This document shows, piece after piece, positions 479-6,153 of a stretch of 6,195 nt of DNA. How positions within the stretch are numbered: the first letter of the stretch is position 1; each line of letters opens with the position of its first letter. A program made the position numbers and the translations under genes. Source of the DNA: Candidatus Odinarchaeota archaeon (GTDB lineage: Archaea > Asgardarchaeota > Odinarchaeia > Odinarchaeales > Odinarchaeaceae); the NCBI GenBank assembly GCA_038826135.1, contig JAWBON010000070.1, forward strand, positions 1 through 6,195, written 5' to 3'. The notes beneath the pieces were generated by a model, which saw only the letters and a program-made list of their open reading frames with translations, was not told where the DNA came from and did not search any database.

Positions 479-1366
479 TCAGATTAATCCTTTCTCCATA
501 AGAACTTGGAATTCTTCGAAGCTGAGTTTTTCACCTGATTTTAATTTCTCCTGAGCGGTTTTAATCATTTGGTTGAGTTTCAGTTCTATAAGTTTCTCTC
601 TCTCCTTTTTATCTTTAAGTTTTAACTGGTGTATTTGGTCAATGATTTTTTTCATTTCCTTTCTGGCTTCTAAATATTGGGTATGAAATTCGTCAGCTTT
701 TTTCTTGGCTTCAACGAATTTATTATGGAATTCGTCAGCTTGCTTTCTAACATCGTCAACTTGCTTATATATACCAGTCATGGTAGTATGCTCACTCTGT
801 GAGGATTTAGCTGAGGAGACTACTCCATTTTTAATATTTCTCAGAAGAAGTTTATTAGCACCGATCTGTGTCTTGCACAGGATTATTTGATTCTTTAAAG
901 CCTCTGCTTTTTTCTTAGTCTCGATTAGTTTTTCAAGCTCGGATATTTCTTTAACAAGATCTTTCTCTCTTTCTAATGAGATAACAGAGGTCTGTAGCTT
1001 CCATTCGAGGTCTTTAACCCTGTTTACAAGGGTTTTTAACGGGGTTTTAGGCGGGTTGAGAGTATTCAATTCCTCTTTTAGCTTATCATACTCTTTTAAA
1101 AGCTGTTCGTTAGTTTTCTCTAATTCCTCTCTCTTAGCTTTTAAATCAGCTACGTTTGAATTAAGTTTATCTCTTAGAGACTTCTTCTCCTTAGCCTGTG
1201 CTAGTAGTGAGGCTATCACGGTGTTTTTAGCATCTCTCTCCTCAGCGTATTTTTTAGCAATTTCATTATACTCGTCTCTTTGCTTTCTAGCATCGTTAGC
1301 TTTCTCCTTCAACTCACCTAGTTGTCTGATTAGATCCTCCGTCAAATTATCAGCCTCTAAAATCAC
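479..1366 (-). CDS. Archaeal coiled-coil protein, COG1340-like (295 aa)
   Basis: K/E-rich heptads, repeated RDxxN and ADEFH motifs, central LEWKLQTSVISLEREKDLVKEISELE, C-terminal KLKSGEKLSFEEF, all typical of this family as I recall it. GTG start at 1366; an in-frame TTG at codon 8, behind GAGGCTGAT, is an alternative start. Confidence 0.8.
   Translation of the reverse strand: MILEADNLTEDLIRQLGELKEKANDARKQRDEYNEIAKKYAEERDAKNTVIASLLAQAKEKKSLRDKLNSNVADLKAKREELEKTNEQLLKEYDKLKEELNTLNPPKTPLKTLVNRVKDLEWKLQTSVISLEREKDLVKEISELEKLIETKKKAEALKNQIILCKTQIGANKLLLRNIKNGVVSSAKSSQSEHTTMTGIYKQVDDVRKQADEFHNKFVEAKKKADEFHTQYLEARKEMKKIIDQIHQLKLKDKKEREKLIELKLNQMIKTAQEKLKSGEKLSFEEFQVLMEKGLI
687..741. repeat. Intragenic 13-bp exact direct repeat with 42-bp period
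   Basis: AATTCGTCAGCTT at 687-699 and 729-741, encoding the two ADEF(H) motifs 14 residues apart. Confidence 0.85.
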
Positions 1367-1393
1367 GCCTCACAGTTCACCAATAGATTAGCA

Positions 1394-1412
1394 GTTATAT
1401 ATAGCTTTTACC
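1394..1412 (-). promoter_or_regulatory. Putative BRE + TATA box for the coiled-coil gene
   Basis: Minus strand GGTAAAAGC-TATATATA-AC: purine-rich element directly followed by TATATATA (1403-1396), about 30 nt upstream of GTG 1366. Confidence 0.6.
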
Positions 1413-1498
1413 TTTAATGCTGTAAAACGGCTTCTAGCAAGTGTTTAAAAATGGTTTAAATCAGTAAATAAATATTTCGAATAGCATTTAATGCAGGT

Positions 1499-2278
1499 TC
1501 AGAGATTTCTAATATTGAATAGTTTAACAGTGTTTTTGAAAGTTACTTCAGCAAGTTCTTTTACATCTGTAGATTTGAGTTTAGCGATCTCGTTTAGGGA
1601 AACCACCAGGTTTTCTAAAGTGTTTCTAACACCTTTTACCGGAGATAAAGCAGGTGAGTCTGTTTCAAGTAATATTTGCTCTAAAGGAAGTTTTTTAACA
1701 AGCTTTCTTTTCTGTAAACTATAAGCTACACTTGGGGGTATACTGAAGAAAAAGCCGTTTTCAACACCGAGTTTAGCAGATTTAAACGAGCCGTCGAACG
1801 CGTGGAGTAATACTTTCTCAGCTCGGCTCTCAACTAATACTTCCAGAGCATATTTACCAGCGCTTCTACTGTGAACTATTATTGGAAGCTTATGCTCATT
1901 TGCAAGGGATATAAAACTTTTAAAATATGAACGCTGTTTCTCCCTATCATACTGGTTTTCTACTTGATAGAAGTCTAAGCCAATCTCACCTATAGCGGTT
2001 AGCCGTTGAATATTATCCTCTATAAACTTATAATTCTCTTTAAAATACGTCGCATCTAGGCTAGACGGGTTTAAGCCGACTGAAAGATAGATTTTCACAT
2101 TAGTAGTAGGAGATTCTATTTCATGAAGGGTTTTTAAAGCTGTTTTTACATCTAAAGCGGATTCAACAATCCCTATAATCCCTTTCTCATAAGCTCTTTT
2201 TAGAATAATAAATCTGTCTCCGTCAAACTCCTCTGAGAAAATATGGCAGTGCGAGTCTATTAGCTTATAACTTGGCAT
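1499..2278 (-). CDS. tatD: TatD-family metal-dependent hydrolase/DNase (259 aa)
   Basis: Motifs DSHCH, AIGEIGLDFY, LPIIVHSR, VLLHAF, LLETDSP. ATG preceded by GGTGAAGCTGGTGTAA (SD-like). Confidence 0.93.
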   Translation of the reverse strand: MPSYKLIDSHCHIFSEEFDGDRFIILKRAYEKGIIGIVESALDVKTALKTLHEIESPTTNVKIYLSVGLNPSSLDATYFKENYKFIEDNIQRLTAIGEIGLDFYQVENQYDREKQRSYFKSFISLANEHKLPIIVHSRSAGKYALEVLVESRAEKVLLHAFDGSFKSAKLGVENGFFFSIPPSVAYSLQKRKLVKKLPLEQILLETDSPALSPVKGVRNTLENLVVSLNEIAKLKSTDVKELAEVTFKNTVKLFNIRNL

Positions 2279-2358
2279 TTACACCAGCTTCACCAGTTAA
2301 TAATCTAGATTTATTTATTTCTTGAACTAATATATTTTAAGTATGGAAACATTTATGG

Positions 2359-3627
2359 TTGGTGGAATATTTGGATAAGCCTACTACCACGCTTGACATT
2401 TATAAGAGGTTTATAAATTTAAAGTTCAAATCAGAAGCCGCTGACAGGCTTAGGAAGTATTTAAATAATATACGTGAGAAAACTATGCTGGAAAATTCTT
2501 CCAGTAACCGTTTTTTAAAAATATTTGAAGCATTTATTGTTTTCTTTTCAAAAACAGTTAGTTTAAAAAATAATCACAGCGCTATTGAAACAGAAGATTT
2601 AGATAAAGCCGCATATTTTATCGAGTTTTACTCAACTTCGAAGTTATGGGCGGAGTTAGCTACCGGTAAAACATTTAAAAACTTGAAAATTTCGGAGAGT
2701 GATTTCTTAACGGAAATTAAGAAAATATATAGTTTAGAGGTCTCCTTTAACGCTAAGAACGCTGTTGACAGGATTATGGAGCGTTTCACACTTCATGTAA
2801 ACCAGATGTTTAGTGAAAATGAAAATATTGTTAAAGAAAAATTCTTGCTATTAATAAGATACACTATTATAATGCTATCTTTCTTGATATCTATCTCGAG
2901 AGATGAAGGGAGATTAACCGTTGACACGGTTTTAAAAGGGTATGAATTATTTAGAAGTATATTGTTTAGGATTCCGAGTTTTGAATTCGATTCATTGTTT
3001 AATCTTAAAAATTTTATTAAAAAAGAGGTTATAATGCGGCTACTAGAGTACATGGAGGAGGCTGAGAGAAACAGAATCACTGGGGAAGTTACTGAAAAAT
3101 TAGTGAATAGTTTAGTGGTAAGAGACTTAACTGATGAAAAACCGATGTTTTATGCTGAGCTTAAATCCGCCATCTATGTTATTTTCCTTTTCATCCATTA
3201 TGCTAGAGGAGTGTTTCGATTTAATGATAAAGACTCTCTGGAACTGTTAAAAATTTATAATAATATTAAAAATGGAATAGTTGAAGAGGCGGATGTAACA
3301 GTAGATGATAGTTTTTATGAATGTCTTTCAAACATAGAATTATCTATAGATGCTAGGATTTTTTTAAACAGTATAACTAATATGATAATTAGTTTTGAAG
3401 CAGAGCTGAACATAGCTGATAGAATGAATTTAATCCCTGAACTTGCGCGTAAAATTTCACACACAATTTCATTATTATCTAAAATGTTTTCTCTCAGATA
3501 TAAAAAAACAGAATGCGATGTGGATGATTTGAAAAAAGGCTTGAATATAATTTCAAATGTTTTTTCAAAAGCTAAGCAAGGTTTACTTCTGGCCTCTAAG
3601 GATTATTCTAGCATCAACAACGGATAA
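2359..3627 (+). CDS. Hypothetical all-helical protein (422 aa) with four tandem AAA+-lid-like repeats
   Basis: Long open frame with no enzyme motif I recognise; internal ~100-aa periodicity found by manual alignment (see findings). Start uncertain: TTG 2359, GTG 2362 or TTG 2371. Confidence 0.75.
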   Translation: MVEYLDKPTTTLDIYKRFINLKFKSEAADRLRKYLNNIREKTMLENSSSNRFLKIFEAFIVFFSKTVSLKNNHSAIETEDLDKAAYFIEFYSTSKLWAELATGKTFKNLKISESDFLTEIKKIYSLEVSFNAKNAVDRIMERFTLHVNQMFSENENIVKEKFLLLIRYTIIMLSFLISISRDEGRLTVDTVLKGYELFRSILFRIPSFEFDSLFNLKNFIKKEVIMRLLEYMEEAERNRITGEVTEKLVNSLVVRDLTDEKPMFYAELKSAIYVIFLFIHYARGVFRFNDKDSLELLKIYNNIKNGIVEEADVTVDDSFYECLSNIELSIDARIFLNSITNMIISFEAELNIADRMNLIPELARKISHTISLLSKMFSLRYKKTECDVDDLKKGLNIISNVFSKAKQGLLLASKDYSSINNG

Positions 3628-4302
3628 ACCGTTTTCGTAAACAATAACAGGGTTAAGATCAAGCTCTAATATTTCAGGGTATTTTAATACGAGAGATGAT
3701 ATTTTAAGGAGTGTTTCTTTAATACTTTTTATATCAGCTTTACAACCACTCCTATATCCGTTTAAAATAGGATAAGCCTTTAATTCTTTCAACATTTCCT
3801 CAGCGTCAAGATCTGAAATCGGTATTAAGCGCATACTAAAATCTTTCAATAACTCTACGAATACACCACCTAACCCAACCATTATCGTATGACCGAACTG
3901 CTCATCGAAGGATACGCCTATTATAAGTTCAACTATTCCTCTAGGAGCCATTTTAGAAACCATAACACCGTCTATTCTAGCATGTTTAGCCTTCGCCGAT
4001 ACGTTACTTATAATTTTATTATACGCTTCAGCCACATCTTTCTTATCGGTTAAATTGAGCATAACACCCCCGTAGTCGGATTTATGAATTATGTCCGGTG
4101 ACGTAATTTTAAGCACAACCGGGTAACCTAACTTTTCAGCTGCTTCAAGCGCTTCTTTAACACTCCTAACTAGTTTATATTCTGGGATGGGGACGCTGAT
4201 TTCTCTAAGAATATTTTTACTCTCATACTCTGTTAACACATATCGACCTGATGAAATAGTTTTTGAAATAATCTCACTGATCAATTCATTAGTTGAAGGC
4301 AT
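3583..4302 (-). CDS. acdB: ADP-forming acetate/acyl-CoA synthetase beta subunit, ATP-grasp (239 aa)
   Basis: Motifs LTEYESK, GYPVVLKITSPDIIHKSDYGGV, ELIIG..DEQFGHTIMVGLGGVFVELLKD, ELDLNP, VVDARI. Length fits a stand-alone beta subunit. Confidence 0.9.
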   Translation of the reverse strand: MPSTNELISEIISKTISSGRYVLTEYESKNILREISVPIPEYKLVRSVKEALEAAEKLGYPVVLKITSPDIIHKSDYGGVMLNLTDKKDVAEAYNKIISNVSAKAKHARIDGVMVSKMAPRGIVELIIGVSFDEQFGHTIMVGLGGVFVELLKDFSMRLIPISDLDAEEMLKELKAYPILNGYRSGCKADIKSIKETLLKISSLVLKYPEILELDLNPVIVYENGLSVVDARIILRGQK

Positions 4303-4339
4303 GTTAATACACTCTTACTTTAGTTATCTATAAAATTTA

Positions 4340-5104
4340 TTATGTGATGTAACCGTCTTCGCCGCCGAAAAATATTCTTGAAATCTGCCCGTATATTTTT
4401 TCAATGCTTATAACGTCATTTATAGAGACGGGTTGAAGACCAGATATCAACCCTATATTCTCCAGATTATAGTAGAGTTGAATCGCCAGCTCCCTGTAAA
4501 TGCTACTATCCTCCTCACTTAAGGATTCTAGCAGGCTATACGGTTCTGACCCCCATTTCAATATTCTTTCAAGTTCACTCTCAGTGATTAAATCCACTTT
4601 TGTAAGCAAATTCACTTGAGGAGTGTTAAACCTGAACTGGGTTGATATACTTAATAGAAGTATTGAAACAAAATCGGATGGTTTCCGCGCCAGCGTCGGG
4701 TCTATTAAAAAAAACACCATACAATTCTTACGCCCTAGGGATTCGACTATAAAAGGACCTGAAGACCTATATGTGAAAAGTTCCATTTGACCAGGAGTGT
4801 CAACTAAAACAATCTCGTTACCTAACTCTAGTATTTCCTGCTGTATATCATTTATTTTAGCAGCCATAATATCAGCTGCAGCTATCAGTGCACCGTTAGG
4901 ACCCAGGTTATAGTCTAAAATAATCCTCTCTATATCCACATAGTTTCTCACATCAACGTCAGCGCCGTAAGGGAGTGTCACAACCCCAGGGTCGAGGTTA
5001 ACAGTTGTAGCATCTATTTTATGATCACTCAACCATTTAGATACAGAGTTAACAAGTGAAGATTTACCTGACCCCGCAGGCCCAATGAAAAAAGAATAAT
5101 ACAT
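4340..5104 (-). CDS. GPN-loop GTPase (254 aa)
   Basis: G1 GPAGSGKS, NLDPG, signature LGPNGA, G3 DTPGQMELF, G4 TKVD. SD-like GGGGTGG upstream of ATG 5104. Confidence 0.93.
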   Translation of the reverse strand: MYYSFFIGPAGSGKSSLVNSVSKWLSDHKIDATTVNLDPGVVTLPYGADVDVRNYVDIERIILDYNLGPNGALIAAADIMAAKINDIQQEILELGNEIVLVDTPGQMELFTYRSSGPFIVESLGRKNCMVFFLIDPTLARKPSDFVSILLLSISTQFRFNTPQVNLLTKVDLITESELERILKWGSEPYSLLESLSEEDSSIYRELAIQLYYNLENIGLISGLQPVSINDVISIEKIYGQISRIFFGGEDGYIT

Positions 5105-5229: not shown

Positions 5230-6153
5230 ATGAGTTTGTTGAAAACGGCTTTAGGTTCAGTATCACTTATCAATCCTGTTATAATAGCTTCCGGTGTTTT
5301 AGGAACTACAGCTGAAGGTATTAGATTATTATATGAGAGAGGGGCTGGCGCTATCGTGACTAAGACGACTACTTTAAACCGTAGGGAGGGTAACGTTAAT
5401 CCGACTGTTGTGTCCACACCTTCAGGGATTCTTAACTGTATGGGGCTTCCGAACCCGGGGATAGATGAAATGTGCAGGGAGGTTGAGATAGTCTGCAGGG
5501 AGGGTGTGCCGGTTATAGGAAGCGTTGCCGGCTCTTCAATCAATGAATTCGTACAGGTGGCGGGTAGATTTGAGGAGGCGGGTGTGATTGCGGTTGAATT
5601 AAACGTCTCATGCCCTCATGAAGAAGTTGGTTTAATAGGTCAAGACTGTAAGTTAACATATCAAGTTGTTAAAGCGGTGAAAGATGCGGTTAACATACCT
5701 GTAATAGTGAAACTGACACCGAACGTGACAAGTATAGTGGATGTGGCGTTAGAGGCTGAGAAAGCTGGGGCGGATGCGCTAACAGCTATCAACACGGTGA
5801 AAGGGATGGTTATTGACGTAGACACAGGTTACCCCACTCTAAGTAATAGGGTTGGGGGATTATCAGGGCCTGCTATAAAACCTATTGCAGTACGGTGTGT
5901 TTACGAAATCTATAGCAGTGATGTTAAGATACCGATTATAGGGGTGGGGGGTATCGCTAACTGGAGAGATGCACTAGAATTCATAATGGCTGGGGCCTCC
6001 GCCATACAAATAGGAACAGCTCTTATACGAGGTTATCATATTATCGAAAACGTAAAGAAAGGTTTACTACAATATATGCGGAAAAATAATATTAAAACGA
6101 TTAGTGAAATCGTAGGCTTATCTCATAAGAGGGATAGGGTTGCATACACCTAA
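5230..6153 (+). CDS. pyrD: Dihydroorotate dehydrogenase, family 1B catalytic subunit (307 aa)
   Basis: Motifs IIASG, KTTT..RREGN..P, NCMGLPNPG, catalytic-Cys loop ELNVSCPH, VKLTPNV, AINT, GGLSGPAIKPIA, IPIIGVGGI, AGASAIQIGTA. Confidence 0.95.
   Translation: MSLLKTALGSVSLINPVIIASGVLGTTAEGIRLLYERGAGAIVTKTTTLNRREGNVNPTVVSTPSGILNCMGLPNPGIDEMCREVEIVCREGVPVIGSVAGSSINEFVQVAGRFEEAGVIAVELNVSCPHEEVGLIGQDCKLTYQVVKAVKDAVNIPVIVKLTPNVTSIVDVALEAEKAGADALTAINTVKGMVIDVDTGYPTLSNRVGGLSGPAIKPIAVRCVYEIYSSDVKIPIIGVGGIANWRDALEFIMAGASAIQIGTALIRGYHIIENVKKGLLQYMRKNNIKTISEIVGLSHKRDRVAYT

Follow-up and report, generated by a model that had tools for sequence, protein, structure and literature searches.

In a stretch of DNA from a Candidatus Odinarchaeota archaeon we identified a gene whose 422-residue product is predicted to be all-helical, with four homologous bundles, each of some 90-100 residues, packed into a rigid chain; the bundles are related to the lid domains of AAA+ ATPases and are not joined to any ATPase core. 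The stretch analysed, hereafter the window, is the whole 6.2-kb contig (6,195 nucleotides; JAWBON010000070.1) of an Asgard metagenome-assembled genome (MAG) with a size of 1.26 Mb. The gene, which we refer to as the four-lid gene, was located from the open reading frame (ORF) list and its translation, and runs from 2359 to 3627 on the forward strand, stop codon included; its ORF starts with TTG, and the GTG at 2362, which is the next codon, is an alternative start. The protein it encodes is, on balance, probably a non-catalytic rigid scaffold or adaptor offering lid-type surfaces for protein-protein contacts.

The identification rests first on a four-fold internal repeat. A first-pass annotation of this DNA had aligned four 33-residue segments (residues 59-91, 169-201, 271-303 and 369-401, spaced by 110, 102 and 98 amino acids), and an unbiased search of the protein for its best four ungapped segments returned the same ones, with their residue positions, nucleotide positions and spacings all as first given. 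When judged from the 422-residue sequence alone, the repeat is marginal: the sum-of-pairs BLOSUM62 score of the segments is 73, as compared with 44 +/- 12 for shuffled sequences, and one of 200 shuffles reached 73. With three close homologues it was likewise weak, and only the pairs formed by unit 1 and unit 4 (P 1e-3) and by unit 2 and unit 4 (P 0.04) were seen. We then used an alignment of 56 homologues extracted from Asgard genomes, which serves as the family alignment throughout, cut it into its four units and compared the slices pairwise using hhalign. All six unit pairs aligned over 85-97 columns in the register proposed earlier, with P values of 4.6e-12 (units 1 and 2), 1.6e-9 (1 and 4), 5.7e-9 (2 and 4), 5.9e-7 (2 and 3), 1.9e-6 (1 and 3) and 1.9e-5 (3 and 4), while column-shuffled controls never fell below 0.017 in 120 trials. 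The internal repeat, as judged from these alignments, is therefore highly significant and real. The similar helix starts that had been noted 50-60 residues upstream of each segment (at 21, 125, 238 and 326) are also in register, both in the unit alignments and in the structural model described below, where they correspond to strand 1 and helix 1 of each unit. Since all four copies are found in every full-length member aligned, the quadruplication must be older than the split of these Asgard lineages.

To describe the fold of the units, we relied on an AlphaFold2 (AF2) model computed on the 56-sequence alignment, which has a predicted local distance difference test (pLDDT) score of 89.4 and a predicted template modelling (pTM) score of 0.88; a model computed on four sequences has a pLDDT of 45 and is unusable outside residues 11-90. 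In the 56-sequence model, unit 1 spans residues 11-93 (2389..2637; this and the following units all lie on the forward strand) and is predicted to consist of helix 11-20, a strand at 23, helices 25-42 and 47-70, a strand at 76 and helix 78-93. Unit 2 spans residues 116-204 (2704..2970), with helix 116-125, strand 127-128, helices 130-148 and 153-180, strand 185-186 and helix 188-204. Unit 4, at residues 318-406 (3310..3576), has helix 318-324, strand 327-328, helices within 330-350, helix 358-380, strand 385-386 and helix 388-406. These three units thus share the order helix, strand, helix, helix, strand, helix. Unit 3 (residues 222-311; 3022..3291) is modelled with helices only (222-237, 239-252, 255-260, 262-283 and 290-311) and no strands; it is the most diverged copy, yet it aligns to units 1, 2 and 4 (P 2e-6 to 2e-5).

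Two aspects of the model separate a lid from a histone fold. In all four units the central helix is interrupted (at residues 43-46, 149-152, 253-261 and 351-357), whereas that of a histone fold runs unbroken for about 28 residues between two loops. The earlier suggestion that the units are akin to the histone fold, yet exceed it in length, agrees with their spacing of 98-110 residues. In addition, strand lengths agree within units in the DSSP string of the AF2 model, favouring pairing inside each unit. Because unit 4 has two strands and unit 3 none, the predicted strands of unit 4 can pair only with each other, and the unit would then be closed, as in an AAA+ lid, where histones would form an open handshake, with L1 of one fold paired to L2 of another.

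For comparison at the level of sequence profiles, we drew on Asgard genomes to build reference alignments of histones and of the MCM, TIP49, Cdc6, LonB and classic-clade lids. Using hhalign, unit 1 matched the MCM lid with P 2.8e-5 over 75 columns, with all helices and both strands in register, and matched the TIP49 lid and the histone profile each with P 1.2e-3. Unit 2 matched the histone profile with P 2.2e-5 and the TIP49 lid with P 2.9e-4, and the scores of unit 4, though in register, were weak (0.011-0.026). As a yardstick, the known families score P 1.2e-6 to 0.3 against each other, which makes the units as near to MCM lids, TIP49 lids and histones as these are to one another, and reversed or column-shuffled templates never gave P below 0.04. 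Being significantly similar to both lids and histones, the units are members of the helix-strand-helix superfamily, which groups histone folds and Clp N domains with the lids of AAA+ proteins (Alva et al. 2007, PMC1847821). Sequence comparison by itself does not settle the choice between lid and histone; the topology predicted by the model settles it for the lid.

Curated profiles pointed the same way for part of the family. Pfam TIP49_C was matched by six of the 56 members, in two cases over the curated cut-off, with a score that is summed across several units. The 422-residue protein matched no Pfam family, whole or cut into units, the sole row at E <= 10 being noise, and an NCBIfam search with it likewise returned noise only. 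An hmmsearch of PDB sequences with the full-length and unit 4 profiles gave noise, mostly designed repeat proteins. The histone families PF00808 and PF00125 were matched by none of the 56 members at E <= 1, and not by the 422-residue protein at E <= 10. The family is not described in Pfam, NCBIfam, the PDB or the searchable literature, in which we looked for tandem lids in Asgard archaea, histone quadruplets and DUF7121; the first-pass annotation, too, had known of no described family with this architecture.

Comparison of the model with known structures also favoured lids. An exhaustive VIA structure alignment against 48,161 PDB chains returned, among its best 50 rows, mostly the lids of MCM2-7, archaeal MCM, MCM8/9, ORC1/4/5, Cdc6, RuvBL, LonB, BchI, MuB and Rpt3, with histone folds and Clp N domains coming after them. 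Around unit 2, MCM lids match residues 51-204 and the HMk histone doublet matches residues 123-202; unit 4 is matched by RuvBL, LonB, ORC4/5 and Cdc6 lids together with Clp/Hsp100 N domains. The lid topology of the AF2 model, the lid-dominated PDB matches, the significant in-register profile scores and the two members that pass the TIP49_C cut-off jointly bear out the original proposal of four tandem AAA+/MCM-lid-like modules. Searches with the whole chain behaved differently. Foldseek against the PDB and BFVD found nothing at E <= 0.001, its rows being transporters and tail proteins with template modelling (TM) scores below 0.2, and a shape search of the ESM Atlas gave TM scores of at most 0.36 and no whole-chain look-alike, with a similar outcome for an Atlas search on its own model. 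Were the lid similarity due to chance, the protein might instead reside in a membrane or fold as a generic helical solenoid, and in that case one would point to the transporters that alone fill the whole-chain Foldseek list (E 0.07 or worse) and to a 19-residue stretch at 162-180 with a mean Kyte-Doolittle hydropathy of 2.1. We regard this as very improbable. The transporter rows have TM scores of 0.09-0.17 and root mean square deviations above 17, the stretch at 162-180, which contains an Arg at a conserved position, is buried as the central helix of unit 2 in a globular model of high confidence, the longest charge-free stretch in the protein is 13 residues, and both the sequence profiles and the uniform VIA list favour lids.

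A closer competitor is a single-chain pseudo-histone, in which the four units would stand in for a histone tetramer on a single polypeptide and bind DNA or bend it. The profile scores of units 1 and 2 against Asgard histones (P 1.2e-3 and 2.2e-5, as above) speak for it, as does the presence of histone doublets (HMk, Melbournevirus, H2A-H2B and SOS) and of TAFs among the VIA matches. So does an Arg/Asp pair (Arg-x-x-V-x-x-x-Asp) kept in most units, a clamp common to lids and histone folds. A further lead, and no more than a lead, comes from language-model neighbours in the ESM Atlas, which are Thermoplasmatota proteins of 262-270 residues that in part match PF00808 (score 0.82). The size of these neighbours fits the acidic histone quadruplets of Poseidoniales (PMC13260811), and quadruplets of this type probably account for them. 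Set against the pseudo-histone are the central helix broken in every unit and the strands modelled in unit 4, which are predicted to pair with each other, units of about 100 residues where a histone fold has about 65, and the absence of a PF00808 or PF00125 match in any member. Nor is a basic surface conserved: the isoelectric point of family members ranges from 5.0 to 9.8 (median 7.7), and the net charge per unit from -9 to +9, with unit medians of 0 to 2. This lack of charge conservation argues against an obligatory histone-like DNA-binding surface and weakens the DNA-binder option raised at first pass. We consider the pseudo-histone unlikely, and return to the lid-type chain.

Which residues the family keeps bears on what such a chain could do. 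Apart from hydrophobic residues of the core, the family conserves the strand-2 motif Asp of units 1, 2 and 4 (D80, D190 and D390) together with R199 and F203, the last two being 93-96% invariant across the 56 sequences. By column statistics over the same sequences, the most conserved motif of the family is F-R-x-P-x-x-D-F at the junction of units 2 and 3 (residues 203-210; 2965..2988, forward strand), of which P206 is also a part. Ahead of strand 2 there is a conserved basic residue, at a distance of three positions in units 1 and 2 and of one in unit 3, with weak conservation in unit 4; together with the Asp it corresponds to the Arg/Asp clamp of lids and histones. No AAA Pfam domain was found in the 422-residue protein or in the 56 members, nor any P-loop ASCE core or other catalytic domain. 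A Walker-A-like string (A-E-L-A-T-G-K-T) occurs at residues 98-105 (2650-2673), in the linker after unit 1, in one of the 56 members, namely the protein of the window; as it is not kept even in the closest homologues, we take it as chance. With no Walker A motif conserved and no beta-sheet core, the lack of an ATPase core claimed at the outset holds.

AAA+ lids carry a sensor-2 arginine at the start of the third helix, and we compared this position across the units. In unit 4 the sensor-2-like position 365 is basic in 44 of the 56 members (R in 33, K in 11), often as P-R-Q; in unit 1 the corresponding position 54 is K in 13 and R in three, and in units 2 and 3 it is not conserved. The first-pass annotation was thus right to see no consistent placement of a sensor-2 Arg in the protein as a whole, a basic residue being kept in unit 4 only. 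The sensor 2 of MCM is said to act in trans. Conceivably, the four-lid protein could work in trans on an AAA+ ring (MCM, Orc1/Cdc6, RFC or another), as its partner or its mimic, with its lids docking on ATPase cores to supply or block lid and sensor-2 contacts and so regulating loading or activity. That MCM and TIP49 lids are the nearest relatives in both sequence and structure, and that the P-R-Q of unit 4 resembles the A-R-Q of MCM, would fit such a role. It is countered by the lack of a co-localised AAA+ gene in the 24 loci compared, by the absence of a sensor-2 residue from units 1-3, and by those Asgard families that have no four-lid gene and still possess MCM and Cdc6. We judge a role of this general kind unlikely, if slightly less so than the pseudo-histone; the specific version, in which rigidly spaced MCM-type lids dock on MCM or Orc1/Cdc6 rings via the unit 4 Arg, is more doubtful than either.

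The scaffold or adaptor role is thus the reading we prefer. Conservation is concentrated in core hydrophobics, the clamp and a single junction motif, and charge is not conserved, which makes a non-catalytic scaffold or adaptor the most likely function. By analogy, the rigid chain of four lid-type bundles would present surfaces for protein contacts, and the four-lid protein would act through these without catalysis. The precedents on which this analogy draws are the N-domain of DNA polymerase epsilon subunit B, which is described as lid-like and as standing alone from any ATPase core (PMC2528186), and the Clp N-domain, which recognises substrates (PMC1847821). Three points weigh against it. Unit 3, taken alone, has no significant hhalign match to any lid or histone profile. 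The sensor-2-like Arg or Lys of unit 4, present in 79% of members, hints at a nucleotide- or ATPase-related contact that would be superfluous to a pure scaffold. Finally, calling the protein a scaffold is in part what one falls back on when a conserved protein has no catalytic residues.

To establish how widely the gene occurs, we searched 400 Asgard genomes with family profiles. Full-length homologues have 395-450 residues, occur once per genome and share 12-17% identity. Using the 56-sequence profile, the four-lid gene was found in 111 of the 400 genomes, with its frame intact at about 400 residues, and it is near-universal within Asgard families f1 (that of the window), f2, f3, f13, f17-19 and f30-33. 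In 24 other Asgard families the same profile gave only two chance-level fragments (E about 0.005-0.01, with internal stop codons); the families without the gene include the two largest, f22 (135 genomes) and f8 (31), as well as several closed genomes. The nearest named relative is OdinLCB4_001545 of Candidatus Odinarchaeum yellowstonii, with 53% identity and an identical gene order, and one named match to the family is a 'Hodarchaeota' MAG. Word-indexed protein searches returned few members, each annotated 'hypothetical protein', and a wider representative search, for which only a four-sequence profile was used, returned six proteins and does not establish absence beyond Asgard archaea. We conclude that the four-lid gene is real, conserved and single-copy, with Asgard archaea as the only group in which it has been seen to date. 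One sister-family genome carries, besides the full gene, a separate open frame of 112 residues that matches unit 1 only (G300:C141:3346-3654; E 7.5e-33) and could be either a stand-alone single-lid copy or an assembly fragment. Sequencing runs gave no evidence on expression either way: a hot-spring run that is labelled metatranscriptomic, and is probably DNA, yielded low-depth pieces along the whole window, and a second, RNA run yielded nothing from it.

The surroundings of the gene are conserved as well. In the window, Pfam identifies an MBL-fold protein (3-386), a 295-residue coiled-coil protein of the DUF7121 family (479..1366; PF23435, E 1.2e-21) and TatD (1499-2278, between the DUF7121 and four-lid genes), all on the reverse strand and upstream of the four-lid gene. 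Downstream, also on the reverse strand, lie a stand-alone ATP-grasp_5 protein of 239 residues, which is the convergent neighbour (3583..4302; PF13549, E 2e-82), and a GPN-loop GTPase of 254 residues (4340..5104; PF03029, E 1.2e-55), followed on the forward strand by dihydroorotate dehydrogenase (5230-6153). The four-lid gene and the convergent ATP-grasp_5 gene share 45 nucleotides at their 3' ends (3583-3627); in other families the two genes abut or share a few bases, and such an arrangement leaves no space for separate terminators. Across distant Asgard families, 22 of the 24 loci compared have ATP-grasp_5 and/or GPN tail-to-tail with the four-lid gene, GPN adjoins the four-lid or the ATP-grasp gene in many loci, and DUF7121 is the divergent upstream neighbour in ten of the 24, seven times directly adjacent. 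Direct divergent neighbours of this kind are seen in loci L065, L067, L068 and L082, while in the genus of the window TatD intervenes. The cluster of GPN, ATP-grasp_5 and DUF7121 genes is itself conserved across distant Asgard families (479-5104 in the window; L144 and L147; also L068, L079 and L082). No mention of DUF7121 was found in the literature searched.

These neighbours raise the question of whether the four-lid protein is an accessory factor of the GPN / ATP-grasp / DUF7121 cluster, for instance one that serves the GPN assembly chaperone as an adaptor or as a platform for holding clients. The tail-to-tail arrangement in 22 of 24 loci and the frequent divergent DUF7121 gene would be expected of such a factor, and the partners of archaeal GPN are unknown (PMC10746158). 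Against this, the four-lid gene is always on the strand opposite to the cluster, and in f31, the largest family that has it, GPN and DUF7121 are no longer nearby. A synteny-guided search for a diverged four-lid copy beside GPN found none in five Asgard genomes without a profile match, and in two of these five the GPN, ATP-grasp and DUF7121 genes are directly adjacent and co-directional, so the cluster works without the four-lid gene. The simplest explanation would have an older cluster of GPN, ATP-grasp and DUF7121 genes receive the four-lid gene through a single antisense insertion and keep it from then on. Because a single ancient insertion of this kind explains the conserved neighbourhood with no need of a functional link, we rate the idea of a GPN cofactor low.

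Two observations on AAA+ genes were made along the way. In the genome of the window, the MCM lid (G000:C9:16726-16983; L094) lies in an open frame of 1992 residues, where close relatives have 1130-1653 and other Asgard genomes about 690, which suggests that inteins interrupt MCM in this genus. TIP49/RuvBL-type ATPases were found in some of the sampled Asgard families only (f2, f5, f6, f15 and f27; L108-L116) and not in the genus of the window, and their presence has no clear relation to that of the four-lid gene.

Hitherto the lid has been met almost exclusively attached to AAA+ ATPases. A conserved protein made of lids only shows that the module can serve as a building block by itself, and the protein occurs in several lineages of those archaea that are nearest to eukaryotes. 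Histone folds have been proposed to derive from AAA+ lids by domain swapping (PMC1847821); since its units score equally against lids and histones, the four-lid protein bears on that proposal, and it might conceivably be a living example of the tandem-lid state that is proposed to be ancestral to histone folds. If a partner were found, such as a replication ATPase or the GPN assembly GTPase, the protein would represent a new kind of regulator, and if it did act in trans on MCM or Orc1/Cdc6, a new mode of controlling helicase loading or activity.

Among known systems, the lids of MCM (PF17855) and TIP49/RuvBL (PF17856) come closest. Their order of helices and strands is identical to that of the units, and the shared motifs fall in register: helix 0 carries an aromatic residue, strand 1 is hydrophobic, and R-x-x-V-x-x-x-D-x-x-x-A surrounds strand 2. 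Against units 1 and 2 these lids give P values between 2.8e-5 and 1.2e-3; they lead the structure matches, and it is the TIP49_C cut-off that two members pass. Unlike them, the four-lid protein has no ATPase core before any unit, four copies per chain and a sensor-2 residue in unit 4 only, and the protein of the window itself falls below every Pfam lid threshold. The N-domain of DNA polymerase epsilon subunit B offers a parallel for a lid-like bundle that is used in protein contacts with no ATPase core, as described in PMC2528186; it differs in being present as a single copy, fused to other domains, and eukaryotic. The Clp/Hsp100 N-domain, for which the match is weak, has two shorter repeats in about 145 residues and is always fused to an ATPase. 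The histone fold, as represented by PF00808, the HMk doublet (1F1E) and the viral and Poseidoniales quadruplets, belongs to the same superfamily (PMC1847821), shares the Arg/Asp clamp and gives profile scores comparable to those of lids. In contrast to it, the units have a broken central helix, are each predicted to be closed upon themselves and not paired by a handshake, are about 100 residues long instead of about 65, match no Pfam histone family and have no conserved basic character. The quadruplets, like the four-lid protein, carry four units in one chain. With a median length of 262 residues in the acidic Poseidoniales histones (PMC13260811) and about 65 residues per fold, the viral and Poseidoniales quadruplets are the nearest described 'four in a row' proteins, next to which the four-lid protein, with its 422 residues and units spaced at 98-110, is a longer chain built of larger, lid-type modules.

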